A stretch of DNA of 64,000 nucleotides from an uncultured virus (IMG/VR IMGVR_UViG_3300024261_001453) (IMGVR_UViG_3300024261_001453); one strand, 5' to 3'; positions 1 through 61,841 are shown, numbered from the stretch's first letter. Made by a program: numbers and translations. Notes: a model not told the origin generated them from the sequence alone.

Positions 1-2
1 AG

Positions 3-101
3 ATTGCTAACTTAGGAAACGATTCTATCGTAGCAGTTAAAGATGATAATGTTTGTAAGGTTATTAGTGTTACTCCTTATGGAAACAATCCAGTAGATTA
101 A
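3..101 (+). CDS. 3' end of a gene truncated by the window edge (IANLGNDSIVAVKDDNVCKVISVTPYGNNPVD*)
   Basis: Open frame from the window start to TAA at 99-101, converging on the next gene. Confidence 0.5.
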   Translation: MANLGNDSIVAVKDDNVCKVISVTPYGNNPVD

Positions 102-126
102 TATGAATCGAATTTAGTTGGATTCA

Positions 127-1029
127 TTAATAGATAATTGGTCCATCAAACCCCAAACGAACATTTTGACCATCAAACACAATTGTTTCCGTTATCTCAG
201 AAGGCTTAAATGTATTTTTGTGATAAACTTTCATTGGTCTTCTAAAGTCTTCTTCTGGTGGAGTATAGACATAATTAAAACACTCACATCCACCACCCGT
301 TCTTTTCCAAGACTTGGTTAAAAAAAAGTTATCACCTATTAATTCCTTTATGTGAAAATAAATATAATTCTCTTTTGAGTATTCATTGATAGGCATTAAA
401 GATACTAAACCAATATCATTTATCTCAACAGAGTTTGCCCATTCTAAATATTTAAATACTTCTTCTGGTGTATCTATATAATTCTTTATTAAGTTACATC
501 TGAATTGTACTTGGTGTGGATGTGTTTGTAAATGGCTTATAGCCTTTATCTCTTCTGATGTAGGAGTTTTGCATTTGAATATCTCATCATTAATCTTATC
601 ATCATAGTGGTGACGACTAAGTTGTATATAATCATATCTTTTAGCAATAGGGTCGTTAAATAACTTCTCCCATCTAAATCCGTCTGTATTCAGTGATAAT
701 TCACAATCAGGTGCATATTCCACACCAACATTGGACATTTCCAGAAAATTATCCCAATATAAAGTTGGTTCTCCACCAGAAATGGCTATTTTTCTAATCT
801 TAATTCTATCTGATATATGTTGTAAGACTTCTTTATATTTTTTACCGTTCCATTTGGATGCGTCTGAGTGATATGTACAGAATGAGCACTTAGCGTTACA
901 GAATTTAGTTCTAACATAAAGATTTATATAAGGTTCTTCAATGGCGTTTCCCTCCTCCTCTCCAAATAAGGCACAATTATGAGTTATTAGCTTAATTTCT
1001 TTCCCGAATAATTCGATTGATTCTAACAT
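127..1029 (-). CDS. Radical SAM protein, function unknown
   Basis: CxxxCxxC motif (CNAKCSFC), ISGGEPTL motif, NTDG, SRHHYDD. Confidence 0.9.
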   Translation of the reverse strand: MLESIELFGKEIKLITHNCALFGEEEGNAIEEPYINLYVRTKFCNAKCSFCTYHSDASKWNGKKYKEVLQHISDRIKIRKIAISGGEPTLYWDNFLEMSNVGVEYAPDCELSLNTDGFRWEKLFNDPIAKRYDYIQLSRHHYDDKINDEIFKCKTPTSEEIKAISHLQTHPHQVQFRCNLIKNYIDTPEEVFKYLEWANSVEINDIGLVSLMPINEYSKENYIYFHIKELIGDNFFLTKSWKRTGGGCECFNYVYTPPEEDFRRPMKVYHKNTFKPSEITETIVFDGQNVRLGFDGPIIY

Positions 1030-1039
1030 TATTTATTTA

Positions 1040-1300
1040 TTAACAAGATGATCTTGAATATGATGAATCATCGTTTCGAAATCTCGAAATTGATGATTTT
1101 GGTGTTGGTGTTACTTTTTTATTAATTCGTGGCTCGATATCATTTTCGATACAAAACTTTATATAAACAGCTCTTTTCAAATCGCCTGTGTTTATTAAAT
1201 CTTCACAAGCATCATTAAATTTTGATTCAAGGTTAGTACCTTCATATCTACCTTTGTAGAATTGTAAAAGTTTTGCTAAAAGTTCTAATTGTTGGTCCAT
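1040..1300 (-). CDS. Small protein (86 aa) with Ser/Arg-rich tail ending in Cys
   Basis: ORF tightly packed between nadR and the radical SAM gene on the same strand. Confidence 0.7.
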   Translation of the reverse strand: MDQQLELLAKLLQFYKGRYEGTNLESKFNDACEDLINTGDLKRAVYIKFCIENDIEPRINKKVTPTPKSSISRFRNDDSSYSRSSC

Positions 1301-1318
1301 TGTGAATTCTTATTTTAG

Positions 1319-2338
1319 TTATATATTAAATTGTGAATTTACAATTTCAATAGATTTGCTTAATCTATCTCTCCAATTACCACCCACTTCTATATAATTA
1401 CAATTGTACTTTTCCAATTCTGATTTAATAACATTATAATGTTCCATCCTTTCTTCTAAAAACTGTCGTGTTCCGTCTTGAACACCATCACAATCAGGTT
1501 TCAATAGTAAGTATAAATCATAATTACTATTTTTATATACTTTATCTAGTAATATGTTTTCAATACTTTTATAACCATTTGGAAAATACATTTTTGAGAA
1601 GAGGTATGTTGTTATATCCTCTGTATCACAGAATAATAATTTATTGGATGTCTTTATTTTTTGATTTTCCAATTCTTGTCGACCAACAGATATTGGGATA
1701 AAGTCTTCTATTCCTATTTTATTACCATTTCTTTCAAATACAGTTCTGCCATATTCCTCAACAAAATTTGTGTTATAGTATTTAGCTAAATTTTCACTCA
1801 TTGTTGATTTCCCAACAGATTCCGGCCCCATAATAACAATTCTCTTAACGAAGTAGGGTTTTATTTCATCCGGTATAAATTCCCAACTATCAAAGGGGTT
1901 AGTTCTTACTTTAGTTCCTGATATAGGAAATTTCTTTCTTTCTTTATCAACTAGATAGTGTTTTATACCCAAATATTTAGCAAAATCATCACCGTAATTC
2001 TCAGAAGTGAATACACAATCTAATTTACCAACAAATTTATAAACAAATGGAACCCAATAAGAATAAAATTCATCAAGTGATTTACATTCGTGTTCATATT
2101 GTGGCATCTCACTATCATCAACAGAGTGTATTATGACATTTGGGTTACTTTCATATATTTCTCGTAAAGATTTTACTCTTAATTTACCAGGGATTGTTTG
2201 TGTAGGATTATGACAAGCTAAAACATGAACAACTTCCGAATTTTCCAAAGCGGTGTCTATTAAATAAAGGTGCCCGGTGTGTAATCCGTAGAATTTACCC
2301 AATACTAAACTACTTTTGTACTTTTTATCCATTTCCAT
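1319..2338 (-). CDS. nadR: NadR-type bifunctional NMN adenylyltransferase / ribosylnicotinamide kinase (no HTH)
   Basis: GKFYGLHTGHLYLI (HxGH) NMNAT motif, ISGTKVR, P-loop GPESVGKST, EEYGR, DG.R; overlaps the end of pnuC. Confidence 0.92.
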   Translation of the reverse strand: MEMDKKYKSSLVLGKFYGLHTGHLYLIDTALENSEVVHVLACHNPTQTIPGKLRVKSLREIYESNPNVIIHSVDDSEMPQYEHECKSLDEFYSYWVPFVYKFVGKLDCVFTSENYGDDFAKYLGIKHYLVDKERKKFPISGTKVRTNPFDSWEFIPDEIKPYFVKRIVIMGPESVGKSTMSENLAKYYNTNFVEEYGRTVFERNGNKIGIEDFIPISVGRQELENQKIKTSNKLLFCDTEDITTYLFSKMYFPNGYKSIENILLDKVYKNSNYDLYLLLKPDCDGVQDGTRQFLEERMEHYNVIKSELEKYNCNYIEVGGNWRDRLSKSIEIVNSQFNI

Positions 2339-2853
2339 AATCCAATTGATGCTAATATTAAGAATAAACCATATACATATGATGATACGTCTAAGCCATT
2401 TGATGAGAATAATACTATTAATAGAATGTCATTTATAATCCAAAGAATCCAAGCTTCTATTTTCTTCTTCACTAATAGGAATGTAGCCATAACACCCAAT
2501 GTCATTACAGCAGAGTCTAGAAATGGCATATTACCACCATATTCACTTGTTATACAAAACGTGGTCATGTATAGAATAATGGTGCTGGTTGTTAGATATC
2601 CTAATTGCTTTTTATTTAACCAACTAATAGCCAATTCTTCTTTTGGTTTGCTCCAGTTTATCCAACCTAGTATAGATTGGACTAGAAATACACCTTGTAA
2701 AACTAAATCACCAAGTAAGTTATGGTTGTAAAAGATAACAGAGTAAAAGATAACTCCTACGATACCAAATGGCCAACATAATATGTTATCTTTTACTGTT
2801 AGAATAACAGCTAGTAACGTGAATAAAACAGCTACTGCCTCAATAATATCCAT
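2305..2853 (-). CDS. pnuC: PnuC-family nicotinamide riboside/vitamin transporter
   Basis: Multi-TM 182 aa; WPFGIV, GWINW, PFLDS, KKIEAWILWIIND motifs. Confidence 0.92.
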   Translation of the reverse strand: MDIIEAVAVLFTLLAVILTVKDNILCWPFGIVGVIFYSVIFYNHNLLGDLVLQGVFLVQSILGWINWSKPKEELAISWLNKKQLGYLTTSTIILYMTTFCITSEYGGNMPFLDSAVMTLGVMATFLLVKKKIEAWILWIINDILLIVLFSSNGLDVSSYVYGLFLILASIGLWKWIKSTKVV

Positions 2854-4835
2854 TAAATCTTAAATTTAATTGTAGCGAAGAAGTTGAATGGTGGATTAAC
2901 AAAGAAGTGTCTATCTGTACCAACTGCGTATCCATTAGTGTAATAACTTTCATTAGTTATGTTATTTACTCTAATACTTAAACTGTGTTGTTTATAGAAT
3001 TTATAATCAACTTGAGCATTTAATACCACAAAATCTGGTGTTGTGAGTGTGTTCTCCATATCAATATAAGACTCTGAGTGGTACTTCACATCAAATCCAA
3101 CTCTTATTCTATCTTTTGAATCTTTAATCACCACACCTTGGTTAATTATCAAATTAGGTGTGTATAATGGACTAAATTCTTTCCCATCATCATTAATTCT
3201 GTTATAAGAGTATGATGATGTATTAACTAATAATAAGTTAATTTTCTTTTTACTAAATAAACTTAAAGTCATATCTAATTCAATACCACTTCTAAAAGAG
3301 TTTTCAACATTAGTCATTAACGGTAAACCATTTGAACCAATTGCTCCTAATAATGTTATTTCATTTTTGAAATCCATATAGTATAGATTACCTTGTAACT
3401 TAAAGTTATCTAATGTTATATTAGTACCTAATTCATAATCAACAACCGATTCTGGTTTAACATCTATGTAACTAATAGGATCATCTTCTCCCATAAAAAT
3501 ATCATTTCTTGTTGGTTCTCTTTGTGATTGACCAACAGAAGCATAGAAGTTATAGTGTTTACATTTCGTGAACATTATACCACCTTTTGGGTTGAAGAAT
3601 GTCCATTCAAATGGTGCCATATCCATAGTACCTTGATACTTGAAATCAACGTATCTAACTTGAGCATCTCCGAAAAGAGTAAACTTCTTTATATCATATC
3701 CGAATTTAACAAATGATGATACTTCGTTTTTAAGTCCTTTATTAGAATATAGTTCATCTGTGTTTGCTAATACAGTCATAGCATGTCGTCTATCATACAT
3801 ATTACCACTAACACCAATATTCAATCTATATTTATTACCAGTTAAGTTATAGTTAGAGGTTAATCCATAGAAGTTAGAACCTAAATTGAAGTTAAGAACA
3901 TCATCCCCTCCACCAAGTGGTAGTAAATCTAATCCCCAATCTCCATCTAATCTATTATAGAAAGCGGTAGTCGTTAAATTTGACTTGTTAAAAAAGTGTT
4001 TGTGTTTTAAGATAACCATACTTTGTGTAAAGTCGTCATTTTCTCTAGTAGTATTATAGTTAGTTCTTGGTTCTGATTTTATATCATCTTCTGAAACTGC
4101 GAACCAAGCCATTTCATTAGTTGTGTGTCCATTGAATGCTGTTATTTTAACAAAATCCTTTTCTCCATAATAACCACCACTTAAAAAGAATGATTGTCCT
4201 TCACCACCTGAGTTATATTTGTATCCATCACTCGCGTAATTTGAATATCTAGTATAAAAGGCTGTTTTATTTTTTAGTAATCCTGTTGAGTTTTCAATAC
4301 TAACTCTATAAGTATTAAATGATCCATATCCAATTTGTCCTTCTGTTCCTTTCTTTAATCCCGTTGGTGATTCAAAATTAATAGAACCAGCATATGAGGA
4401 AACACCGTTTGTTGATGTACCAACACCACGTTGTATCTGCATTGACCTAATTGAGTTTGTAAAATCTGGGTAATTTGAGAAATATACACCTTGGTCCTCT
4501 GGTTCATTAAGAGGAACCCCATCGAGTGTCATATTAATTCTAGTTTGGTCAATACCTCTCAATCTAAAGTAAGTATATCCCATATTGTGACCGCCATCTG
4601 TTGATGATGTTACACTTGGTGTTGTGTTTAATAACAACGGTAATTCTTGTGTATGATACATAACATCTATATCATCTTTACTGATTGTTTTCTGAGTGAC
4701 TGGTGTTTTAGATCCAGCTCTAATTCCTTGTATAGTAACTTCTTCAATTTGCACCATTGATGTGTCAACCTTTAGAGTATCCTGTGAATACGATGTTGAT
4801 GTTGCTAATAAAAATAAAAATAGTAATTTCTTCAT
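2853..4835 (-). CDS. TonB-dependent outer-membrane receptor (Bacteroidota vitamin-receptor type)
   Basis: Signal peptide ending ...SYS/Q, TonB-box-like IEEVTI, plug motifs (RLRGIDQTRINMTLDGVPLN; QIQRGVGTS..G..SYAGSIN), C-terminal NNITN...ATIKFKI beta-barrel end. Confidence 0.93.
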   Translation of the reverse strand: MKKLLFLFLLATSTSYSQDTLKVDTSMVQIEEVTIQGIRAGSKTPVTQKTISKDDIDVMYHTQELPLLLNTTPSVTSSTDGGHNMGYTYFRLRGIDQTRINMTLDGVPLNEPEDQGVYFSNYPDFTNSIRSMQIQRGVGTSTNGVSSYAGSINFESPTGLKKGTEGQIGYGSFNTYRVSIENSTGLLKNKTAFYTRYSNYASDGYKYNSGGEGQSFFLSGGYYGEKDFVKITAFNGHTTNEMAWFAVSEDDIKSEPRTNYNTTRENDDFTQSMVILKHKHFFNKSNLTTTAFYNRLDGDWGLDLLPLGGGDDVLNFNLGSNFYGLTSNYNLTGNKYRLNIGVSGNMYDRRHAMTVLANTDELYSNKGLKNEVSSFVKFGYDIKKFTLFGDAQVRYVDFKYQGTMDMAPFEWTFFNPKGGIMFTKCKHYNFYASVGQSQREPTRNDIFMGEDDPISYIDVKPESVVDYELGTNITLDNFKLQGNLYYMDFKNEITLLGAIGSNGLPLMTNVENSFRSGIELDMTLSLFSKKKINLLLVNTSSYSYNRINDDGKEFSPLYTPNLIINQGVVIKDSKDRIRVGFDVKYHSESYIDMENTLTTPDFVVLNAQVDYKFYKQHSLSIRVNNITNESYYTNGYAVGTDRHFFVNPPFNFFATIKFKI

Positions 4836-4851
4836 ATTTTTTGTTATTGAT

Positions 4852-5211
4852 TTATATTGATTGATTTATTATTGATTCTCTGTTTTCTGATTTAAGATAT
4901 TCGAAAAAGTCTTTTAGTAAAATATTTTCTGTTCCATCATACTCATATTCACTACCACTTCCTATATTCCCATAATTTATATTTGAGTTTTTAAACTCAT
5001 TAAATTTTTCTTCTAATTTCTTACTCATTTCAGTGGATGTATGGATATCAATTGTATTGTCTCTTTCATCTAAGTAAAAAGTGAACAATTTGTTATCTAA
5101 TCCAGTTCTTTTGTGGTGTACCGAGACGAATCTTTTACCAAGTACCTCAATATGGTCTGAGTTATCACATTTAAGTTCAATTCCGTAAAATGGTAAGTAT
5201 AAATTTATCAT
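4852..5211 (-). CDS. Hypothetical protein
   Basis: 119-aa ORF in the minus-strand run; C-terminal NRESIINQSI. Confidence 0.7.
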   Translation of the reverse strand: MINLYLPFYGIELKCDNSDHIEVLGKRFVSVHHKRTGLDNKLFTFYLDERDNTIDIHTSTEMSKKLEEKFNEFKNSNINYGNIGSGSEYEYDGTENILLKDFFEYLKSENRESIINQSI

Positions 5212-5231
5212 ATTAGATTAAAATTATTTGA

Positions 5232-6020
5232 TTAAATATCATCCTCTTCAAAATCTTGTTCGAAGCTAAGCATCAAATTAGATTCTTCATCTTTAACTAA
5301 CATAAAGGTTTCGAATATACTGAATGTGATTTTTTCTCTCTCAGCGTTTATGCAATTTAAAAACCTTTTATTAAAAATAAGGTTAGAACTTCTATCATCT
5401 TCTAAGTTATCGACTTCTAAATCCCAAGCTGATTTTTCAGAGAAGTTAACAATACCTTTATCGATACCAATATTTATAATTCTCTCTGAGTTAATACTTG
5501 AAAGTTTTTTAATATCAGTGAAATCATCTTTCGTAAGAGCGAATGACCATTTACTATTTTTTAGATTTAAGTTCTTAGCTAACATTTCTTTATTGATTTC
5601 TCTAGTTTCATTATTGTGTTCTCCACCAACCCAATTAATCTTAAATCGACCACAAGATACTTGGAAATATCTTACTTGATAAATGTCTCTATCATCGGCT
5701 GATGGTTTATAATTAAATTCTATTGTTACTTTATCCGGATCCTTGATCATACCAAGGTTCTTAACAAATTTCTTGATATTAGGTATGACTAAATCTAATT
5801 GATAATCTAGGTCATCGTTTTTTATGAGAAATTCATCTGTTGGTATTAAATAGTTTTTGAAGGCGAGTAATATATTCTTACCTAAGATAGAATACATTAA
5901 TACATCATCATTATCTATTTTCAACCTAACACTATCATCAATAGTTGATAAATCACTTAATTTAGAAACAAATGTATTAAATGTGTCTCCGTTTATTTTA
6001 AATTTTACTTTATTCGCCAT
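5232..6020 (-). CDS. Putative sliding clamp (gp45/PCNA-like)
   Basis: 262 aa, acidic, alpha/beta repeat pattern resembling the PCNA N-terminus; a clamp loader is also in the window. Confidence 0.6.
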   Translation of the reverse strand: MANKVKFKINGDTFNTFVSKLSDLSTIDDSVRLKIDNDDVLMYSILGKNILLAFKNYLIPTDEFLIKNDDLDYQLDLVIPNIKKFVKNLGMIKDPDKVTIEFNYKPSADDRDIYQVRYFQVSCGRFKINWVGGEHNNETREINKEMLAKNLNLKNSKWSFALTKDDFTDIKKLSSINSERIINIGIDKGIVNFSEKSAWDLEVDNLEDDRSSNLIFNKRFLNCINAEREKITFSIFETFMLVKDEESNLMLSFEQDFEEDDI

Positions 6021-6090
6021 TTCGTAGAAATATTATTACTAAGTATATCATGTAAATCTTTTTTTGTTTAGTTATTTTAATATATATGTT

Positions 6091-6417
6091 ATGGTAAAAA
6101 AATGGAATCAATTTATTAGAGAATTCATAGAGAACTCGGATAATGTTATCGATATTAAAATGCAAGAGATAAGAACACTTATAAATGGTGTTTCTGATGG
6201 CCAGAACATAGTATATGAATGGGAGAATAAAAATGATCATCAATTAATAGTTAATTTCACTAAAGATGATTTATCTATTAGATATGAATTTGACATCGAT
6301 AATTTGATAGTTAAAAAAATAGTTGGTGATACTGTTGATTTCACCAATCAGGCAAAATCCATAAGTGGTGGGTTAATTAATATTGAAAAGGATATACATA
6401 TGGTTTTAAGTATTTAA
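6091..6417 (+). CDS. Hypothetical protein with CTS-like N-terminus (MVKKWNQFIRE)
   Basis: ATG just after TAATATATA; more plausible than the TTG start at 6064. Confidence 0.7.
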   Translation: MVKKWNQFIREFIENSDNVIDIKMQEIRTLINGVSDGQNIVYEWENKNDHQLIVNFTKDDLSIRYEFDIDNLIVKKIVGDTVDFTNQAKSISGGLINIEKDIHMVLSI

Positions 6418-6798
6418 GATAGGTTTAACGTGTTCGTTAATTATTCTTTCAACTTCCTTTAACTTCTTTCTCGTAGTTTTAACATCTAATTGAATTCTCC
6501 AATTTCTAACAAGTACATCATCATCATCTGGAATTTCTTCGATTATTATATCGAAGTCTTCATCTTCCTTTAAAATTTCAAAGAAATTCTCATCACTTTC
6601 AAAAGAAGTCTTAAATTCTTTCATTGTCTTTTCATCAATCTGTTGATAAGCACCATAAGGATCTAGAACCTCATATGTACCATTTTCGTTTGGTTCAAAT
6701 ATATGACCTTTTTCATAAATGACCTTTTCCTTTGAAAGGCCCATAAAATCAGTCTTTATACACCAATCTTCTTTTGATATAAATCTAGGATACTTCAT
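6406..6798 (-). CDS. Hypothetical protein
   Basis: 130-aa ORF. Confidence 0.7.
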   Translation of the reverse strand: MKYPRFISKEDWCIKTDFMGLSKEKVIYEKGHIFEPNENGTYEVLDPYGAYQQIDEKTMKEFKTSFESDENFFEILKEDEDFDIIIEEIPDDDDVLVRNWRIQLDVKTTRKKLKEVERIINEHVKPILNT

Positions 6799-6822
6799 TT
6801 TTAATTTGTTTTTTATAAAATA

Positions 6823-7320
6823 TTAACTACGACCTAAATAGTTCATTAATTCAATCATATTCTTTATTGAATATGAAAAGCTTTCAAGATTTCTTACGGT
6901 GTCTCTTAAAAATTCTATATATGATTCTATTAATTCCATACATCTATCATTCTCGGCTAGGTGACCGTCTATTAAAATACCCTTTTCTCCTAAATTGGTT
7001 TTCATACCAAAACCCGTTGCATAAAAAACAAATTTATCTTGTCTAAGTTTCTTTATCTTAGTCGTTTCTCTACTACGTTTATTTAAAAAGAAGTTAATTT
7101 GTTCGTTAATTTGTTGTCTGTGTGTGAGAGCGTTAGCTTGAGCATCAAGTAATGGTTTAGCATTTGAGGGAATACTTAAATCCAAAGAAAGTACTTGAAA
7201 TAATGGTTCCACATTTTTATTCCAATCTGTTCTTTTGTCATTAAAGAAGTCTTCTAATTTATCATTAGTCTCCTTTGCTTTTTTGATTCTCTCTAATTCT
7301 TCTTGGTTATATGGGTTCAT
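6823..7320 (-). CDS. UvsY-like recombination mediator
   Basis: Helical protein ending LESFSYSIKNMIELMNY, similar to the UvsY C-terminal IKN.IE motif. Confidence 0.6.
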   Translation of the reverse strand: MNPYNQEELERIKKAKETNDKLEDFFNDKRTDWNKNVEPLFQVLSLDLSIPSNAKPLLDAQANALTHRQQINEQINFFLNKRSRETTKIKKLRQDKFVFYATGFGMKTNLGEKGILIDGHLAENDRCMELIESYIEFLRDTVRNLESFSYSIKNMIELMNYLGRS

Positions 7321-7397
7321 ACTTAAATATTTTTTTCATTTGTTAATCATACCTTTTATGTCTTTATCTATGTTTTGATTTAAATATTTTTCAAAAT

Positions 7398-7676
7398 TTA
7401 TTTATTTATTTCATCCATAATCTTTGAGATTTTGAAATCTCTTATGATTTTAATTGTTGAATTATCGATACCCTCATATATATCATTTGATGAGTGACCA
7501 TTATTATTGATAATATTTAATACTGATATTAATGATTCTCCCATCTCATCTAGATGTTGATTGATAATATTCTTCTTATTAATATTATTATTTTTTATAT
7601 AATCAGAAATTATAATTATATGTGATGTTAGGTAATCAAGGTATTCATTAATTTCTAACTCTGTTGGTTCTTGCAT
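7398..7676 (-). CDS. Hypothetical protein
   Basis: 92-aa ORF; C-terminal IRDFKISKIM. Confidence 0.6.
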   Translation of the reverse strand: MQEPTELEINEYLDYLTSHIIIISDYIKNNNINKKNIINQHLDEMGESLISVLNIINNNGHSSNDIYEGIDNSTIKIIRDFKISKIMDEINK

Positions 7677-7742
7677 ATGTATCGAATTTTATCTAAAAAT
7701 GGGTATTTTGTTTATTATATATACTAAAAATAAAAGTATCTT

Positions 7743-8474
7743 ATGAGTATAACAATAGGAAACCTTAAAAGGGTTATGAAAAACAAAGGATATAAATGGT
7801 ATACAGATAGACCTAATATGATAGGAGTGAGAACCACATTAGATATACCAGATTCGTTTAATGATTTCTTCTGTATGGTTTATTCTATCCCAGAAATGCC
7901 TTCTACTTTATCATTAAAACAAAAACAATCTTTTTTAAATAATTGGGGATTTATAGGAGCCAATGGTAGAAAATTATCGGAGGATGGTGTTAGTGGTAAA
8001 AATACTGATTATGCTATTTCTCAATATGAATCTAAGAAGGGAAAAGAAGATTTAAAAATATTTCCGAATACAACTAACCCTGGGGTTTATTGGTTAAACC
8101 ACCCTATGAATAAAATGGGATCAGCTGTTCTTAAACCTGGTCAATGGGAAGATTGTTGGTCTCGTGGACAACACATAAAGCCTAGTCATAGAGCATTAAG
8201 ACAAACTGGTAAGATAACAGTTTATAGAGATAATGATAAAGATAATAATTATGACTTGAATGAGTCTAATACACAAAATGGTTTATTTGGTATAAATATT
8301 CATGGTTCTGGTAGAAAGTACCCTTCTAAACAAATTGGTAAATGGTCTGCTGGTTGTCAAGTTTTCTCTAATTGGGAACATAAAGAGTTTGTGATGGATG
8401 TTTGTGATAATTTCAAAGCACACACTGGTAATAAATTTACTTATACATTAATAGATGAAGTTGATTTAGTTTAA
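7743..8474 (+). CDS. Putative cell-wall enzyme: L,D-transpeptidase-like catalytic domain with an inserted peptidoglycan-binding-like motif
   Basis: GINIHG-x13-SAGCQV (YkuD-like His...Cys); LSEDGVSGKNTDYAI resembles the PG_binding_1 DG..G..T..A motif. Confidence 0.65.
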   Translation: MSITIGNLKRVMKNKGYKWYTDRPNMIGVRTTLDIPDSFNDFFCMVYSIPEMPSTLSLKQKQSFLNNWGFIGANGRKLSEDGVSGKNTDYAISQYESKKGKEDLKIFPNTTNPGVYWLNHPMNKMGSAVLKPGQWEDCWSRGQHIKPSHRALRQTGKITVYRDNDKDNNYDLNESNTQNGLFGINIHGSGRKYPSKQIGKWSAGCQVFSNWEHKEFVMDVCDNFKAHTGNKFTYTLIDEVDLV

Positions 8475-8488
8475 AACTAAAATAAAGT

Positions 8489-8519
8489 AAAAACCCACTC
8501 AGATTTTGAGTGGTTTTTT
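8489..8519. terminator. Bidirectional intrinsic terminator
   Basis: A-tract CCACTCA-loop-TGAGTGG T-tract between convergent genes. Confidence 0.85.
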
Positions 8520-8841
8520 ATGCTTTTTTATTTATTTTGTCATATAACTTTTTGAAATGATCTCTTATCATTCTTTTAGTAACTTCTTCTAAAGATAAAA
8601 TGTTATTAACTTCGTTAAGAAAATCTTCTAATCCTAAATCATCCATGAATTCTTTGGTGAATTCTTTGTTTAATTCTCTTAGTATTGTTCTTGAATCTAT
8701 TTTCTTATCCATGTTCAAAAGTATAGAAGTTCTATATTCTTTTAATCTAAATAATAAATTATCATTTATCTGTGATAATGTATTTTCATCCAAATCAGAC
8801 ATTTTTAATTCTTCGTTAAACTTTTTGAAATTATAAATCAT
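8518..8841 (-). CDS. Hypothetical protein with CTS-like N-terminus (MIYNFKKFNEE)
   Basis: ATG at 8841 follows the upstream gene's stop. Confidence 0.7.
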   Translation of the reverse strand: MIYNFKKFNEELKMSDLDENTLSQINDNLLFRLKEYRTSILLNMDKKIDSRTILRELNKEFTKEFMDDLGLEDFLNEVNNILSLEEVTKRMIRDHFKKLYDKINKKA

Positions 8842-8845
8842 ATTA

Positions 8846-9748
8846 TTATACTTTTTCGTCAAATAGATAAAGGTCATATAGTGAATTGCCTTTAACTCTT
8901 TTAATATTTTTTAATACATCTCCTGTTATAGAGTCTAATACTTTATAAACTCCTAATTGTGTACCTTTGTCTGTTAAAACTTTAACTGTATTTCCTGGTT
9001 GACCAAGTGCTCCTAAAATAGCAATATATTTATTACCATAAATACTTTTAAGAAAAGACATTCTTAACCCAACCATATCCTTAATATTATTGATATAAGC
9101 ATTTTCCATTGGGTTTGTTAAATCTACTTGACTGTCAGCATCTTTAACTTTAATTATAGCGAATTTTCTATTTTCATCTCCAATAGTAACCTCTTCTCTA
9201 CTTTGAATCTTATCTTGTTTAACAAGGTTTTGTTGGTTTCTTCTTATTTCATTGAAATCAGCACGTGCTATCATACCACCTCTCATTCCTTTATCATTCA
9301 TATTGTATCCGTTTGGTGGAAGTCTATAAAATGAACCAGTAAATGTCATTGACAATACTCTATCAGTTCTAAAAAGTCTCCATATCTTATTAATGTGTCT
9401 TTTTTGTGATACTGACCAACCATTTAAGTGCCATCCTCTAAGTAAAGTCTTACCTTTTGATGACCTACCTAATACCATTGGATATATAACTCTTTCATGG
9501 CCAGCAAAATGAGAATCCTTTTCTCCTTTGTAGTTAAGTAAGAATATCATACCATATTTAATAGCTTTAATCATTAATTCATCCGAATATTTAACTGGTT
9601 CGTTAATAGGAATATTTGCTATATCTCTAACATTCTTTAATGAAAATCTAGGAACAAACTCTTGATTTTCAATCAAGTCATATTTTTCTTTAATAATAAA
9701 CTCAACTGGTTTTGTGTTGTAATATGCTCTTACTTGTCTTAAATTCAT
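8846..9748 (-). CDS. WYL-like domain protein
   Basis: LNYKG...ERVIYPMVLG...LLRGW...WRLFRTDRVLS pattern of the WYL fold. Confidence 0.55.
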   Translation of the reverse strand: MNLRQVRAYYNTKPVEFIIKEKYDLIENQEFVPRFSLKNVRDIANIPINEPVKYSDELMIKAIKYGMIFLLNYKGEKDSHFAGHERVIYPMVLGRSSKGKTLLRGWHLNGWSVSQKRHINKIWRLFRTDRVLSMTFTGSFYRLPPNGYNMNDKGMRGGMIARADFNEIRRNQQNLVKQDKIQSREEVTIGDENRKFAIIKVKDADSQVDLTNPMENAYINNIKDMVGLRMSFLKSIYGNKYIAILGALGQPGNTVKVLTDKGTQLGVYKVLDSITGDVLKNIKRVKGNSLYDLYLFDEKV

Positions 9749-48321: not shown

Positions 48322-49404
48322 TTATACTGAAACTGGTACTTCACTAAATATCGTCTCTAACATTCTTTCAGTAACTTGGTATGGGTCACAATTAGAAGCT
48401 GGTCTTCTATCTTCAAAATACCCTTTCTTATCAACAATTGATTGTGCTGGTATTCTAATACTTGTGTCTCTCGTACTGTAACCGTGTGTAAATTCGTGTA
48501 TAGTTGAAGTTTCATGTTCTCCTGTCATTCTCTTATCATTCTCTAATCCATATACTGCCATGTGCTCTTTGTGAGTTTCTTTTAATTTCATAACAGCTTC
48601 ATCTATTAAAGATAATCCACCTTCTTCTCTCATTTCCTTTGTTGAGAAGTTAACGTGACACCCTGATCCATTCCAATCACCAGTCATTGGCTTTGGGTGT
48701 AATGATACAATAACATTGTATTTTTCAGCTACCCTTTCTAATAAGTATCTAGATACCCACATTTGGTCACATCCATTTAGTGGTTTCACTGGTCCAATTT
48801 GATATTCCCATTGGCCTAACATAACTTCCGCATTTACTCCTGAGATGTCTAAATCAATTTCTATACACATATTCATATGATCTTCAACTATACCTCTACC
48901 AACAACACTATCAGATCCTATACCACAATAATAATCTCCTTGTTGTCTTGGTTCACCTTTTTCGAATCCTAATGGTAGTGCTCCATTCGTTCCAAATGGA
49001 TTTCTATCTTTCTTCGTTAAAGTGTATTCTTGTTCCCATCCAAACCAAGGTAATTCATCCTTTTCGATTGTTTCGTCTATACCTAGTTCTTCGATTTTTT
49101 CTTGTAGTTTGTTTCTGTGATTACTTTCGTGTTGTGTACCATCTGGGTTTAATACCTCACAAAAAACTAATTTGTTTTGGTCACCTCTAAATGGGTCCTT
49201 AGTTATGAAAACTGGATTTAGTAAACAATCTGTATTCTTCCCCTTTCCCGCTTCTGCTTGTTTTGTTGAACTTCCATCAAATGACCACATTGAGTAGTCT
49301 TCCACTTTTAAGGAATCCTTTGTTTTAATTACTTTTGTTTTACTTCTTAGTTGTTGTGGATTTGACCCATCCAACCATATATACTCTAATTTAATATTTT
49401 GCAT
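48322..49404 (-). CDS. glnII: Glutamine synthetase type II
   Basis: LEYIWLDG, LRSKTK, WSFDGSST.QA, EQEY, NAEVMLGQWEYQIG, GDWNGSGCH.NFST, GYFEDRRPASNCDPY. Confidence 0.95.
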   Translation of the reverse strand: MQNIKLEYIWLDGSNPQQLRSKTKVIKTKDSLKVEDYSMWSFDGSSTKQAEAGKGKNTDCLLNPVFITKDPFRGDQNKLVFCEVLNPDGTQHESNHRNKLQEKIEELGIDETIEKDELPWFGWEQEYTLTKKDRNPFGTNGALPLGFEKGEPRQQGDYYCGIGSDSVVGRGIVEDHMNMCIEIDLDISGVNAEVMLGQWEYQIGPVKPLNGCDQMWVSRYLLERVAEKYNVIVSLHPKPMTGDWNGSGCHVNFSTKEMREEGGLSLIDEAVMKLKETHKEHMAVYGLENDKRMTGEHETSTIHEFTHGYSTRDTSIRIPAQSIVDKKGYFEDRRPASNCDPYQVTERMLETIFSEVPVSV

Positions 49405-49797: not shown

Positions 49798-50131
49798 TGT
49801 ATTTTACATATTACCTATTTTATTCATTTTTATGAATGTTTATCATATGCTTAAGAATAAGCAATTAGATAAGAGATTTAGAGAAAGAGATATAATTGGT
49901 ATGTCAAGATTGGATATTATATATTATTTTACTAAAATTTCATATTGGATATGGGTACCAATTGGTTTCTTTACTAATCAACCAGAACTATTCTATGTAT
50001 TATTTGTTTTGGGATTTTTGAAATTTCCCACTTACCATTTTAATAAAAATATTTTCAGGATCTATAATGATATATACCCAATTTTTTCTATATCCACACT
50101 AATTACAATTTTTTTTCATTGGTTGTTTTGA
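49790..50131 (+). CDS. Small membrane protein
   Basis: 3-4 hydrophobic segments. Confidence 0.7.
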   Translation: MINVFYILPILFIFMNVYHMLKNKQLDKRFRERDIIGMSRLDIIYYFTKISYWIWVPIGFFTNQPELFYVLFVLGFLKFPTYHFNKNIFRIYNDIYPIFSISTLITIFFHWLF

Positions 50132-50964
50132 AATTCGTACCATTTTTCAATATTAATAGATTCTGATACATCAAAGTTTTTAAAATTCTTAATTCTTGGT
50201 AATCTACCTTTCCATTTTTTATTTAAAAATAATAGTTTGTTTTTATCAATTTTACAATTTTTATTCGAAATACTACCCTCATTAAAAAGGTTTATCATTT
50301 CATCCATACTTAATGTTTTATGTTTTTTGTCAAAATTTGGATCCGGATGCGACCATCCAAATTTTACTAACCAATTTAATAAAACTTCTTTACTATATTC
50401 TTTGTAATCCTCTGTTGTTCCATTACCAGTTCTTTTCGATAGTTTTTTATTACCTTCGAATAAAAGACCAGCATGTGTTATTTCTGGAAATTGTTTATCA
50501 GACTCAACCTCACAAATTTTATTCCATATTATTCTTTGTTTTATTTCATTAGAAATATGATCTACACCTCTTACTATATTTGTTACGTCATAATCATAAT
50601 CATCTAATATAGAAGAGAAGTTATAGGTTGGGAATCCATTATTTCTAAGTATAACCATTTCATAACCACCCATATCTAACACATAACCCTTTTCAGTTTT
50701 CGTTCCGATTTTCTCAGCAACTTCTTTATATCTGTCTAATCTTTCTGATTGTCTAAATGTTATATCACTATCCAAACCAAATTTATTCATTTGATCATAG
50801 ATATAATCTATCCATTCTGGTTTATTTCTTTCTTGATCGGTGTCATCAATACGTAGTATGAAAGTACCATTGTTAGCTTTAGCCATTAAATAGTTTAGCA
50901 ATGCTGTTCTTAAAGTTCCTAAGTGGAATTGTCCTGTTGGTGACGGAGCTACTCTTGTTATCAT
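50116..50964 (-). CDS. Truncated glutamyl-tRNA synthetase-like protein (catalytic domain only)
   Basis: TRVAPSPTG.FHLG, LRIDDTD, RQSER, G.PTYNF, RGVDH, KLSKR; only 282 aa. Confidence 0.85.
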   Translation of the reverse strand: MITRVAPSPTGQFHLGTLRTALLNYLMAKANNGTFILRIDDTDQERNKPEWIDYIYDQMNKFGLDSDITFRQSERLDRYKEVAEKIGTKTEKGYVLDMGGYEMVILRNNGFPTYNFSSILDDYDYDVTNIVRGVDHISNEIKQRIIWNKICEVESDKQFPEITHAGLLFEGNKKLSKRTGNGTTEDYKEYSKEVLLNWLVKFGWSHPDPNFDKKHKTLSMDEMINLFNEGSISNKNCKIDKNKLLFLNKKWKGRLPRIKNFKNFDVSESINIEKWYEFQNNQ

Positions 50965-54480: not shown

Positions 54481-54934
54481 ATGCCGCAGTTTTTGGGTCG
54501 GGTATATCAAAGTAAAATTGTGTTACGCTATTACAACTTGGAAGTTTCATTTGTTTAACTTCTAGTAAACACCCCGATTCTAATATGTTTTTTAATTCTT
54601 TACCTTTTGGTGTATCTAGAACTTTTAATACTATTTTTAACTCATCCACTTTATTATTCGTTATGATAAAAGACATTGACCTAACAAAAAATGATATACT
54701 TTTTAATAATATATCAGAATATTCTGGTTTTCCTAAACTACCATATACCGGACTATTTATTTTTGATATTTCGGTTACGTCAAATCCAATCCTTTTACCT
54801 TCGTTTAATAAAACATTAAGTTTTATCTCACGTTTATATTGTATCCATTGTGGAAATTTAGTTAGTAATCGATCATAGTTATTTAACTCAACATCATTTC
54901 CTAAAACAACATTATATTCTAGTAAATCATCCAT
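54479..54934 (-). CDS. Hypothetical protein
   Basis: 151 aa, coupled to rnr; KVLDTPKGK.LK segment weakly recalls prohead protease folds. Confidence 0.65.
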   Translation of the reverse strand: MDDLLEYNVVLGNDVELNNYDRLLTKFPQWIQYKREIKLNVLLNEGKRIGFDVTEISKINSPVYGSLGKPEYSDILLKSISFFVRSMSFIITNNKVDELKIVLKVLDTPKGKELKNILESGCLLEVKQMKLPSCNSVTQFYFDIPDPKTAA

Positions 54935-56838
54935 TACATTTTTATGAAATCTATTTGTTTCTTTTCTAAATCAACACCATTAACTATGATAGTTATCTCA
55001 TCACCTAATCTGATTCTATCCCCAACATCATTAAAGATTTGATAGTTTTGTGTGTCTATATTATAATTACCTTCTAAAGATTGGTATCTTATCATACCCT
55101 CACATTTACTTTCTGTTAATTCAACATATAATCCCCAATCAGTTACACCAGAAACTATCCCAGTGAATACTTTCCCAATTTTATCTAAAAGATATTCGGC
55201 TTGTTTGTATTTTATAGAATCTCTTTGGGCTCTGGATGCTATCAATTCTCTACTTGAACACCATTTAGCCTCATCTTCAACTTTAGTAGGGTTTCCTTGT
55301 TTCTTATTATGTAAGAAATCAAGTAACATTCTATGTGTCATTAAATCCGGATACCTACGTATTGGACTTGTGAAGTGTGAATAGTGTGTGAATCCTAATC
55401 CATAATGTCCTATGTTTTGTATTGTGTATGTTGCTTTAGACATACATCTAGTTACAACCGTACTTAACATATTTTCTTCTGGTGTTCCTTTAACATCTTG
55501 TAATAACTTGTTTATAGATTTTTTAAGATCTTCAGATTCGCCTTCTATTTTGAATTCGTGACCAAAAGTCTTACACACATTTGATAATGCTGTTAACTTC
55601 TCCATATTAGGAGTATCATGTACTCTAAATACATTAGTTCTCGAATTACTTGATAATAGTTTAGCAACAGATTTATTAGCTAGTAACATAAATTCTTCAA
55701 TTAATTTATTAGCTTCTTTCTGTTCTTTGAAATAAACACCAATTGGTTTCTTATTATCCTCTGCTAATTCGAATCGAACTTCCACACCACCCATCTCTAA
55801 TGAACCGTCTTTAATTCTTTTCTTTCTTATTTTCTTAGCTAATGTGTTTAGATGATTAATCATCAATGGATAAACACTACCATCACCTGTGTATTTTTCA
55901 TCATTACCCTCGATTATCTCTTGAGCATCCTCATAAGCAAATCTCATATCAGAATGTATGACTGTTTTACCGTGCCATTCTTTAACAATTTTACCATCCG
56001 AGTCTAGTGTAAATACAACTGAAAATGCTAACCTATCTTCATTAGGTTTTAATGAACATATTCCATTACTAAGTCTTTCTGGTAACATAGATACACATCT
56101 ATCAACTAGATACACAGATGTTGCTCTTTCATAAGCTTCATCATCTAATTTAGTACCAGGTTTAACATAGTGTCCAACATCAGCAATATGTACTCCTACT
56201 TCAAATCTATTATCATTCATTACTTTAAGTGATAATGCGTCATCAAAATCACGAGCATCTACTGGGTCGATTGTTATTGTTGTTGTATCTCTCATATCTC
56301 TACGAGATTTTATTTCCTTTTCGGTTATTACTTCTGGTGTGAGTTCTGATTCGTTTATAACATCTTGTGGAAAATCAACTGGTAATCCATATTCATACAT
56401 TATCGAATTCATCTCAGCGTTATTATCACCAACATCTCCTAATATCTTAGTTATCTTAGCTTGTGGGGATTTACTATCTACCCACTTTGTGAGTTCGACT
56501 ATAACCTTTTGGTTATCTTCCGATTTTAATCCACCCTTGATATAGAAATCAACTGGTATTCTTTTATTATCTGCTATAACAAATGTTGATTTACCATTAA
56601 TATGTACCTTACCAACGAATTCTTTCTTATTCCTTGATATTGTGTTAATTACTTTAGCTTCTAATTTCCTATCACCCCTAAATACTTCTACAATTACTTT
56701 ATCTAAGTGTAAAGCATTTTTAGTATTCTTCTTATAAATGAAAATTGATTTATCGTTTATTGTGATTGTTGCGTGTCTGTTTGTTGAGAACTCTATTTGA
56801 CCTTCGTAACGTTCTCCTTCTTTTATATTATTATTCAT
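54934..56838 (-). CDS. rnr: Ribonuclease R
   Basis: TIDPVDARDFDDALS, VHIADV, TSVYL, LIEEFMLLAN, HFTSPIRRYPD, C-terminal S1; ATG at 56838 preferred. Confidence 0.95.
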   Translation of the reverse strand: MNNNIKEGERYEGQIEFSTNRHATITINDKSIFIYKKNTKNALHLDKVIVEVFRGDRKLEAKVINTISRNKKEFVGKVHINGKSTFVIADNKRIPVDFYIKGGLKSEDNQKVIVELTKWVDSKSPQAKITKILGDVGDNNAEMNSIMYEYGLPVDFPQDVINESELTPEVITEKEIKSRRDMRDTTTITIDPVDARDFDDALSLKVMNDNRFEVGVHIADVGHYVKPGTKLDDEAYERATSVYLVDRCVSMLPERLSNGICSLKPNEDRLAFSVVFTLDSDGKIVKEWHGKTVIHSDMRFAYEDAQEIIEGNDEKYTGDGSVYPLMINHLNTLAKKIRKKRIKDGSLEMGGVEVRFELAEDNKKPIGVYFKEQKEANKLIEEFMLLANKSVAKLLSSNSRTNVFRVHDTPNMEKLTALSNVCKTFGHEFKIEGESEDLKKSINKLLQDVKGTPEENMLSTVVTRCMSKATYTIQNIGHYGLGFTHYSHFTSPIRRYPDLMTHRMLLDFLHNKKQGNPTKVEDEAKWCSSRELIASRAQRDSIKYKQAEYLLDKIGKVFTGIVSGVTDWGLYVELTESKCEGMIRYQSLEGNYNIDTQNYQIFNDVGDRIRLGDEITIIVNGVDLEKKQIDFIKM

Positions 56839-56848
56839 ATTCCTTTTA

Positions 56849-57250
56849 TTAGGAAATATCGTTTTGTTTATTATCGCGTTTGGATATGTTGTCAACACCG
56901 TACTTATCTATAAGTGTTTTTTTCATTTTTTTCAATATTTTATTGTTTTGTATTGGATAGTCAACACCGTAATTTTCTCTTAATGATTTTTTCCTTTTTG
57001 ATTCTGAGCATTTTCTACAAGAGTATTCACCCCAGTTATTATCATATTTAATATAGTTCTTGAATATTACATCCTTTTCGATTCCACATTTATCACACTT
57101 ACACTTTATTTTATAGTGGGATCCTTTGGATAGTAATTCAACTGGTATTATTAATAATTCACCAATTGTAACATCACTATATCCTAGATTTTCATAGTAT
57201 GAATAGTTTGCTTCGCTTATTTTAACTTTTATCTCTCTAGTTATTATCAT
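56849..57250 (-). CDS. Zn-ribbon protein with YGVD repeats (homing-endonuclease-associated N-terminal module, no nuclease domain)
   Basis: CDKCG...CRKC, YGVDYPIQN, YGVDN. Confidence 0.6.
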   Translation of the reverse strand: MIITREIKVKISEANYSYYENLGYSDVTIGELLIIPVELLSKGSHYKIKCKCDKCGIEKDVIFKNYIKYDNNWGEYSCRKCSESKRKKSLRENYGVDYPIQNNKILKKMKKTLIDKYGVDNISKRDNKQNDIS

Positions 57251-61451: not shown

Positions 61452-61841
61452 ATGATTAAAAAGTATAATTATTTCTTTGAGTCTAAGAAGACTAAGTTCC
61501 CTAATATTAAGAAAGTTGAAGTAGAAGGATTCTTTATTCATATAGGTAGAGACTCCAAATCTAACGACCACTTAACATTTAACGTTGCTGATGATAAAGA
61601 CATCTGGATGCACGCTAAGGGTGTTCCTGGGAGTCATGTTATTATAAGAGTTAGAGAAAACTTACCAACTCAAGAAATACTAAGATATGTTGCTGAATTA
61701 GCTAAAAAGAATAGTAAAGCTAGTAAAGAAGATAATGTAACTGTTGTTTATTGCCAAAGAAAATTTGTTAAGAAAGAAAGTGGTATGAATGAGGGTCAAG
61801 TAAGAGTTGATTATATCAATGCCTACGAAATCGTAGTTTGA
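61452..61841 (+). CDS. Stand-alone NFACT RNA-binding domain (DUF814) protein
   Basis: IGRDSKSNDHLT, DIWMHAKGVPGSHVII, A.LA..NSK, FVKK, GQV. Confidence 0.88.
   Translation: MIKKYNYFFESKKTKFPNIKKVEVEGFFIHIGRDSKSNDHLTFNVADDKDIWMHAKGVPGSHVIIRVRENLPTQEILRYVAELAKKNSKASKEDNVTVVYCQRKFVKKESGMNEGQVRVDYINAYEIVV

Follow-up and report, generated by a model that had tools for sequence, protein, structure and literature searches.

A TonB-dependent receptor gene joined to pnuC and nadR in a marine T4-like megaphage: a captured Bacteroidota operon proposed to import an NAD precursor

The three genes and their phage setting

The DNA considered here is a 64,000-nt stretch of the uncultured virus IMGVR_UViG_3300024261_001453; this whole stretch is called the window, and coordinates are counted from its first letter. 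Its minus strand carries three overlapping genes, encoding a 660-aa TonB-dependent outer-membrane receptor (TBDR; 2853..4835), a 182-aa PnuC-family inner-membrane transporter (2305..2853), and a 339-aa NadR-like bifunctional enzyme without the helix-turn-helix (HTH) domain (1319..2338). In a preliminary description of this block, it was postulated that the three proteins together provide a route by which precursors of nicotinamide adenine dinucleotide (NAD) are carried from outside the cell and converted to NAD+. The analysis reported here supports that core reading: the genes form a conserved unit, the PnuC belongs to a NadR-linked clade, neither a thiamine pyrophosphate (TPP) riboswitch nor a thiamine pyrophosphokinase (TPK) gene accompanies them, and the motifs of the enzyme are intact. 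The block is probably a functional, selected copy of a three-gene operon of the Bacteroidota, importing an NAD precursor to rebuild NAD+ in infected cells.

The overlaps that had been described between the genes are borne out by the listing of open reading frames (ORFs) in the window and by direct reading of the junctions. The receptor gene and pnuC share 1 nt, at 2853, within the sequence TAATG, and the ATG of nadR, at 2338, lies 34 nt within pnuC; were the second ATG, at 2332, the start, the overlap would be 28 nt. The block is part of a one-strand gene string that extends from 6020 down to 127, in which the intergenic gaps are no larger than 20 nt.

The placement of the block inside a lytic-phage region is likewise confirmed by T4-type structural and replication genes in the window, which include a T4-type portal, a Gp23-type capsid protein, a large terminase, a tail sheath, a head protease, a clamp loader, and SbcD. 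All three genes of the block have close homologues in cells, and the possibility of a host chimera, in which host DNA has been fused to phage DNA through mis-assembly or mis-binning, was considered. However, in the nearest record (G001), an IMG/VR contig of 154,019 bp (27% complete by CheckV), the block lies about 115 kb in and is flanked by phage genes on both sides. The GC content is even, at about 0.30 all along the window, and the same 12-kb neighbourhood, identical or nearly so (96-100% protein identity), is present in three more IMG/VR contigs from other data sets (L113, 242 kb; L114, 483 kb; L115, 42 kb). Furthermore, the 634,780-bp huge-phage genome LR745206 has 80% DNA identity over the whole neighbourhood with the same gene order, and 0.70 or more of the sampled words of the stretch is contained in each of 16 DNA runs of marine, seawater or brine origin, drawn from no fewer than 12 studies. 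Because the neighbourhood recurs in L113-L115, in LR745206, and in these 16 runs, an assembly chimera is excluded for practical purposes. The carrier of the block is a marine T4-like megaphage, for which LR745206 (635 kb) is the closest deposited genome record.

The receptor has both domains of a TonB-dependent transporter, each above its cut-off: the Plug domain at residues 43-150 (4386..4709, minus strand, as are all features of the block; PF07715, E 5.8e-12) and the TonB_dep_Rec_b-barrel domain at residues 203-626 (2958..4229; PF00593, E 5.1e-26). By sequence and alignment, its N-terminus also fits this class. A putative signal peptide, read from the translation and with an inferred cleavage site, occupies residues 1-17 (MKKLLFLFLLATSTSYS; 4785..4835) and is followed by Q18, which like G37 is invariant in alignment A1. 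Residues 28-37 (VQIEEVTIQG; 4725..4754) match the pattern L/I-x-L-x-E-V-x-V/I of cellular homologues and, from what is generally known of TBDRs, are taken to be the TonB box. Among public proteins, 6252 of 8000 scored candidates are relatives of the receptor at E <=1e-10. In 47 cellular homologues that are linked to the operon described below, 128 alignment columns show conservation of 95% or more. The window receptor retains 123 of them, a proportion inside the cellular leave-one-out range of 0.92-0.98, whereas thiamine-type receptors keep 77-86 and the receptors of Lak megaphages keep 88-91. When the window is compared with LR745206 (synonymous divergence, dS, about 1), the ratio of nonsynonymous to synonymous divergence (dN/dS) is 0.093 for the receptor, 0.158 for PnuC, and 0.111 for NadR, against 0.03-0.06 for neighbouring core genes. 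All three genes of the block are under purifying selection (dN/dS 0.09-0.16).

The transporter is assigned to PF04973 (E 7e-45) and to phrog_1880, scores 88 bits against TIGR01528 (cut-off 42), and matches PDB entry 4QTN at E 1.6e-7. The ligand motif of the Pnu family, WxxW(x)3D/N (PMC5749112), is located by motif at residues 135-142 as WILWIIND (2428..2451).

The enzyme matches phrog_3462 (E 4e-79) and positions 61-405 of the 411 positions of the PRK08099 model; because the match begins at position 61, the HTH domain is judged to be missing. Its matches in the PDB are 8X7F and 1LW7 (the NadR proteins of E. coli and H. influenzae), at E 2e-43, and 9X6F, at E 6e-39. The last of these is Bas30_86, an HTH-less NadR that together with the PnuC-like transporter Bas30_87 makes up the NARP3 pathway of Escherichia phage TrudiRoth/Bas30, for which import of nicotinamide riboside (NR), rebuilding of NAD+, and the overcoming of Sir2-HerA are reported from experiment (Yan et al., Sci Adv 2026, PMC13464706). 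The N-terminal part of the window enzyme, residues ~10-146 (1901..2311; CTP_transf_like, E 5e-4), is a nicotinamide mononucleotide (NMN) adenylyltransferase (NMNAT) domain, whose motifs GKFYGLHTGH and ISGTKVR and loop residues P79, Y81, and W95 are conserved across 64 family members; the earlier statement that the HxGH domain is intact thus holds. The remainder, residues 166-325 (1364..1843; AAA_28, PF13521, E 2.7e-29), is a domain of the ribosylnicotinamide-kinase (RNK) type with the Walker A motif GPESVGKST, DTE, and DGTR, and with E224 and D274 aligned to E230 and D275 of Bas30_86. All of the family motifs (GKFxxxHxGH, the loop Pro/Tyr/Trp, SxTxxR, Walker A, DT[DE], and DGTR) are intact.

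Residues of Bas30_86 that are reported to be needed, either shown by mutation or named as such, are K10/F11, S37, E80/P84/G89, Y86/W90, E230, and D275 (PMC13464706). Most have a counterpart in the window enzyme: K10/F11 correspond to K15/F16, P84 to P79, Y86 to Y81, E230 to E224, and D275 to D274. Two are changed, E80 to D75 and S37 to C42, and the cysteine is also found in the NadR of H. influenzae. The Trp of the family is W95, located past a 3-residue insert, and G89 is without a clear counterpart.

Cellular counterparts and the class of substrate

The origin of the block was sought in GTDB genomes, one genome per prokaryote species. This survey gave 304 relatives of the receptor, from which the best 80 loci, nearly all of them in Bacteroidota, were kept and searched by tblastn with the window PnuC and NadR. 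All three genes are present in 56 of the 80; 6 have the TBDR with NadR, 5 have the TBDR with PnuC, and 13 have the TBDR only, six of these stopping less than 1.7 kb past the receptor. A stricter ORF rule, by which PnuC must be flanked on the same strand and within 1.5 kb by a TBDR and by a NadR of at least 290 aa, retains 49 loci. TBDR-pnuC-nadR is a standard and widespread operon of the Bacteroidota, although a limited literature search found no description of it. Given that 56 of the 80 loci carry the whole unit, the phage block is a copy taken from a host and not an invention of the phage.

Phylogeny agrees with a cellular origin. In a maximum-likelihood (ML) tree of PnuC (69 rows), the window, LR745206, and a second huge-phage record, LR756502, form a clade (98*) that nests within a larger clade (97*) containing 11 cellular PnuCs, all of which are linked to both a receptor and a full NadR. 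A comparison of PnuC with thiamine transporters had been proposed in the preliminary description; the thiamine-linked PnuT proteins, represented by two thiamine comparators (L112 and L109), fall in a separate clade (99*). A tree of NadR with 64 rows, from which 7 kinase-only rows were excluded, recovers the same trio (98*) with the same closest cellular rows, a Fluviicola metagenome-assembled genome (MAG) and Bacteroidia MAGs. When the three genes are concatenated (52 rows, 1201 columns), the operon divides into two clades, each 100*: the window, LR745206, LR756502, and locus L007 are in clade I, and a further phage record, LR756501, is in clade II. The approximately unbiased (AU) test rejects a single clade for the four phage blocks (difference in log-likelihood 308, p 7e-75), the group having been named after inspection of the tree. 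This result indicates that the operon was captured, or replaced, at least twice.

Locus L007 deserves separate mention. It lies on a 16.5-kb contig binned as a Deltaproteobacteria MAG, its receptor is 57% identical to that of the window, and its block is the most window-like among the nominally cellular loci. The next gene, however, matches phrog_33734, a phage-only family (E 1e-63), and L007 may be a mis-binned phage contig.

A different substrate is conceivable. TBDR and Pnu pairs that take up thiamine are established in Bacteroidetes; in B. thetaiotaomicron, OMthi, PnuT, and TPK are encoded together under a TPP riboswitch (PMC6977713). It could thus be argued that the receptor and the Pnu protein of the window import thiamine or another B vitamin in the same manner, with NadR as a bystander or a vitamin kinase. 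Indeed, second Pnu paralogues occur in the same Bacteroidota genomes as the cellular operon, and two of these are of the thiamine type. At L112, the paralogue is preceded by a TPP riboswitch (66 bits) and a receptor of 740 aa; at L109, it is flanked on one side by a receptor of 814 aa that has a CarboxypepD_reg domain and on the other by a TPK. Two more of these second paralogues adjoin kinase-only AAA_28 proteins. Altogether, the Pnu paralogues of Bacteroidota at L110, L111, L041, L042, and L045-L047 are accompanied by such kinase-only NadR-like proteins, of 168-222 aa and without an NMNAT domain; neither L110 nor L111 has a TPP riboswitch at gathering score. In addition, the window PnuC carries D at the last position of WxxWxxx[D/N], as does the PnuT of S. 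woodyi (PMC5749112).

Nevertheless, the thiamine explanation is judged quite improbable. The final D of the motif is found in 45 of the 49 NadR-linked cellular PnuCs, and this position was consequently rejected as a means of discriminating thiamine from NR. The window PnuC lies in a different starred clade from the thiamine-linked PnuTs, and the receptor retains 123 of the 128 conserved columns, compared with the 77-86 of thiamine-type receptors. No Rfam family was matched at or above gathering score in window 1-9000, where a TPP riboswitch was absent even up to E 1, and no TPP riboswitch was found in phage loci L001-L006 or in 7 NadR-linked cellular loci; the same search recovers the riboswitch at L112 as a positive control. 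Similarly, none of the 11 neighbouring ORFs has a TPK domain, which is detected in the positive control L109. The absence of both thiamine markers from the surroundings of the block, which had been noted before, is accordingly upheld by Rfam and Pfam searches. The strongest argument is the partner itself, because the adenylyltransferase for NMN, which is intact in the window NadR, has no role in thiamine metabolism.

A second alternative arises from a published annotation. In their study, Michniewski et al. 2021 (PMC9723777) list a 'TonB-dependent receptor (SusC)' in Mar_Mega_1 and in LR745206 and suggest uptake of carbohydrate; the LR745206 gene is the orthologue of the window receptor (85% identical), and the available text of that paper treats it as a carbohydrate-uptake gene with no mention of PnuC or NadR. 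If so, the receptor would be a SusC-type importer unrelated to the pnuC and nadR genes downstream. However, the window receptor does not match the SusC/RagA model TIGR04056 (at E up to 0.01 in one search and 1e-5 in another), has no N-terminal extension of the CarboxypepD_reg type, and is 660 aa in length; the thiamine-type receptor of L109 does show the SusC/RagA signature together with CarboxypepD_reg. There is no SusD-like gene adjoining the receptor, whose neighbours are pnuC and an ORF of 119 aa without a Pfam family. The SusC label for the megaphage receptor is therefore unsupported. Furthermore, the receptor gene shares a nucleotide with pnuC, and it is linked to pnuC and nadR at 56 of the 80 cellular loci and at 15 of the 23 viral ones. 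An unrelated carbohydrate importer is, in light of these features, very improbable.

Several observations weigh against import of an NAD precursor or limit what can be drawn from the comparisons. The window PnuC is only 28% identical (over 141 aa) to the NARP3 transporter of phage Bas29. For Bas30_87, docking plus mutation identified N45, Q94, and N180 as contacts with NR (PMC13464706); the Bas29 homologue has N, Q, and N at these positions, but the window PnuC aligns T, S, and D, the S being directly preceded by a Q next to an indel. The scores of NadR fall short of the two NCBIfam equivalog thresholds (TIGR01526, 228 bits vs 341; PRK08099, 186 vs 201), and by its sequence it is a divergent member of the family, its motifs being intact nonetheless. 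Kinase-only locus L111 groups with the thiamine-linked PnuT in the PnuC tree, so a kinase domain alone is no proof of NR. In a profile search, the closest solved relatives of the receptor (YncD/PqqU, PhuR, FecA, FyuA) reach only E ~1e-12, and its substrate is consequently not readable from homology. NadA is also present in all 5 cellular genomes tested, which makes the operon an accessory salvage route in cells.

Two further points of this kind concern the working of the receptor in an infected cell. Its C-terminal residue is Ile, vs Phe in most cellular homologues. No TonB_C gene is found in G001 (about a quarter of the genome) or in LR745206, and host TonB must therefore serve. A third concerns expression: contigs from RNA libraries (4 marine runs, 3 studies) cover parts of the block and its neighbours, and three of them lie on the receptor without mismatch (X18, 3948-4227; X19, 3631-3873; X20, 2995-3145), but exact matches may be carried-over DNA and do not establish transcription. 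These small contigs are only a hint that the block is transcribed, giving neither strand nor level, and stretches that they leave uncovered carry no information.

Two side observations belong here. The receptors from LR745206 and L007 share the Ile C-terminus of the window receptor, a feature that might affect recognition by the barrel-assembly machinery. LR756501 encodes a TonB C-terminal-domain protein of its own (470226-470459; locus L094, a 268-aa ORF, 81 bits); no such protein is found in LR745206, LR756502, Lak-A1, or Lak-B1.

Distribution in phages and neighbouring genes

Among 50,697 deposited phage records, homologues of NadR are found in 797, and the receptor is found in only 25. These 25 comprise LR745206 (85% identity), LR756502 (43%), LR756501/3 (39%), 15 Lak megaphages of Prevotella (29-32%), and six faecal contigs. 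A survey of phage genomes for the three-gene block, as had been suggested, finds that it recurs, with the gene order kept, in LR745206 (L001), LR756502 (L002), and LR756501 (L003), as well as in 15 of 23 IMG/VR loci that have a relative of the receptor; of the remaining eight, 6 have the receptor with NadR and 2 have the receptor alone. In 13 divergent viral loci, the flanking genes encode homing endonucleases, a tRNA nucleotidyltransferase, a dNMP kinase, helicases, and DNA ligase.

Other genes of NAD metabolism accompany the receptor in some of these phages. An NAPRTase-family gene lies ~2 kb from the receptor in LR756501, and an NAD+-dependent DNA ligase is encoded by LR745206, LR756502, and Lak-A1; neither NAPRTase nor the NAD ligase was matched in G001, which is about a quarter of the genome. 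In L130, L131, and L133, a NAMPT gene is just upstream of the receptor. Its position there, with NadR downstream, suggests a different layout of an NAD island. In these same loci, the receptor is followed by an ORF of 167-172 aa instead of pnuC (L130:6970-7473, L131:6952-7455, L133:7317-7835), which has a weak match to nucleoside 2-deoxyribosyltransferase (E 8e-5, below cut-off).

The Lak phages depart further from the window arrangement, with the receptor 5 kb from NadR-PnuC. In Lak-A1, DUF4407 and three unknown ORFs come after the receptor, and past them NadR and PnuC overlap and are arranged in the order of NARP3. FastTree groups the Lak receptors with thiamine-type receptors, a placement that carries a long-branch warning and is contradicted by pairwise scores, though it is partly echoed by their low column retention. 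Two ORFs of Lak-A1 (L136:4693-5988 and 480-1496) contain in-frame TAG codons (7 and 6, respectively) and are open only when TAG is translated as an amino acid; the receptor, NadR, and PnuC genes of Lak-A1 have no in-frame TAG.

This distribution bears on yet another explanation, in which PnuC and NadR act as in NARP3 and the receptor has a separate job, serving in superinfection exclusion or as a decoy for rival phages that use TBDRs, or else is a linked passenger. Phage-encoded outer-membrane proteins often function in exclusion. The window receptor matches no PHROG family, the 6 viral loci with TBDR and NadR have no detectable PnuC, and the Lak receptor, at its distance from NadR-PnuC, retains just 88-91 of the 128 conserved columns. 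On the other hand, purifying selection on the window receptor (dN/dS 0.093) is as strong as that on NadR, and its retention of transporter-family residues is inside the cellular range. Furthermore, the order and overlaps of the host operon have been kept in two independent captures, and decay or loss is what one would expect of a passenger. A separate function for the receptor is thus considered unlikely, though less so than uptake of thiamine or of carbohydrate, and a joint function of the three proteins in import is preferred.

Directly upstream of the receptor gene, across a 16-nt gap, is an ORF of 119 aa (4852..5211, minus strand) with 39% identity in LR745206; it has no Pfam or PHROG match and is not a SusD. 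The next gene, 5232..6020, had been described as the sliding clamp. That identification is unconfirmed, as there is no Pfam, PHROG, or PDB sequence match, and the only lead is a weak one (0.93-0.94) in the Atlas to gp45/PCNA clusters, in which 10-63% of the members have gp45 or PCNA domains. Downstream of nadR, an 86-aa ORF (1040..1300, minus strand; 18-nt gap; 60% identity in LR745206) is likewise without a Pfam or PHROG match. The string ends with a gene for a radical SAM protein (127..1029, minus strand; PF04055, E 3e-13), which the Atlas places among virus-dominated radical SAM clusters. A radical SAM gene also adjoins the block in LR745206 (87% identity), in LR756502 (46%, on the opposite strand), and in the IMG/VR locus L128 (44%). 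The protein has a faint resemblance to the models for HxsC, viperin, and MoaA, each far under its cut-off.

A scan of positions 1-8000 for sigma-70 promoters and terminators found no excess over shuffled sequence (53 vs 54.7 and 2 vs 2.2, respectively) and thus yields no operon boundaries. The window contains no tRNAs. The sole Rfam match up to E 1, to CRISPR-DR44 at 2838-2865, is below threshold (28 bits vs 35, E 0.24) and is taken as chance. Other host-like genes lie amid the structural genes of the window, encoding a glutamine-synthetase-like protein (48322-49404, minus strand) and a 282-aa protein with the catalytic domain of Glu/Gln-tRNA synthetase (50116-50964, minus strand); further host-like genes encode an RNB nuclease of the RNase R/II type (54934-56898, minus strand) and an NFACT-R_1 RNA-binding protein (61452-61841, plus strand).

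The proposed pathway and its relation to known systems

Taken together, these results have led to a model in which the substrate, the transport activity and its dependence on TonB, the timing of action, and any role in counter-defence are inferred. In this model, the receptor would be exported and inserted into the outer membrane of the host, where it would pump a scarce NAD precursor into the periplasm by means of host TonB-ExbBD. The precursor would most likely be NR, or possibly NMN or NAD. NR would then diffuse through PnuC over the inner membrane, to be trapped as NMN by the kinase domain of NadR, and the adenylyltransferase domain would produce NAD+. Overall, the process would amount to the two-gene NARP3 pathway with an outer-membrane step added, an arrangement suited to hosts that use TonB-dependent transporters to bring vitamins across the outer membrane. 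The gain to the phage would be a supply of NAD+ over a long infection, relatives of the phage encoding an NAD+-dependent DNA ligase and NAMPT, and the block may also rescue the phage from a defence that depletes NAD+.

A broader proposal can be made, although more tentatively than the reading of the block as a selected import operon. The receptor family may be the first dedicated outer-membrane transporter for the riboside or nucleotide forms of vitamin B3 (NR, NMN, NAD), and the operon may have been captured at least twice because import of the NARP3 type in Bacteroidota needs an outer-membrane step. The phage would in this way re-plumb both membranes, sustain NAD+-dependent replication, and defeat immunity that depletes NAD+. 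If the receptor does import an NAD precursor, a substrate could be assigned to a TonB-dependent transporter encoded by a phage, and the counter-defence of NARP3, described in T5-like coliphages, would extend to marine, lake, and gut megaphages that infect Bacteroidota. A function would also be named for a receptor family of the Bacteroidota that is large and uncharacterised (304 relatives in the genome scan), and the missing outer-membrane step in the salvage of vitamin B3 would be filled, beside the known receptors for B1 and B12. In addition, the published annotation as SusC for carbohydrate uptake would be corrected, and Bacteroidota would be indicated as the hosts of this megaphage group.

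What is already known is the phage pathway of PnuC and NadR, as in NARP3; what the window block adds is an outer-membrane receptor. Limited literature searches did not find the link of receptor, PnuC, and NadR in print. In the papers on huge phages and on Lak phages, the main text mentions neither TonB nor the outer membrane and does not use the terms megaphage or jumbo.

The cellular TBDR-pnuC-nadR operon (L008-L086) is the closest parallel, having the same genes in the same order and often the same small overlaps. The identity to the window proteins is 40-48% for the TBDR, 30-40% for PnuC, and 28-45% for NadR. In contrast to the cellular loci, the window copy is set among phage replication and structural genes, and it is divergent from every cellular copy sampled.

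The thiamine locus OMthi-PnuT-TPK follows the same plan, in that one operon serves two membranes, encoding a TonB-dependent receptor for the outer one and a Pnu facilitator, together with an enzyme that traps the substrate in the cytoplasm. It differs in having a TPP riboswitch and TPK, whereas the window has neither and the partner is a NadR with an NMNAT domain. The receptor and Pnu proteins of the two systems also belong to different clades, and the thiamine-type receptors are larger (740-814 aa), one with CarboxypepD_reg.

Large phages are known to carry NAD genes. In the study of 'NAD-jumbo' phages (PMC11662467), pnuC is reported in 68 of 174, and large phages of this kind carry pnuC, nadR, and NAMPT; relatives of the window phage similarly have NAPRTase and NAMPT. 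The available text of that study mentions neither TonB nor the outer membrane, and no outer-membrane component is described in it. KVP40 NadV/NatV corresponds to NARP2, as cited in PMC9723777 and PMC13464706, and it is different again in that NARP2 draws on intracellular nicotinamide and not on an imported riboside.

NARP3 itself is the nearest phage system. In both, the phage genes are adjacent and encode a PnuC-family protein and an HTH-less NadR-family enzyme with NMNAT and RNK domains, and the chemistry proposed for the window, from NR through NMN to NAD+, is that of NARP3. As judged from its sequence, the window PnuC is of the same module type as that of NARP3 but of a distinct, Bacteroidota-derived lineage. 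The window operon adds a TonB-dependent receptor, and the available text of PMC13464706 makes no mention of TonB, the outer membrane, megaphages, or jumbo phages. The order of the genes is PnuC then NadR in the window, the reverse of that in Bas29/Bas30, and the carrier is a megaphage, whereas NARP3 is found in T5-like phage of Enterobacteriaceae. Finally, NARP3 has been shown at the bench, and the window system is known here from its sequence.

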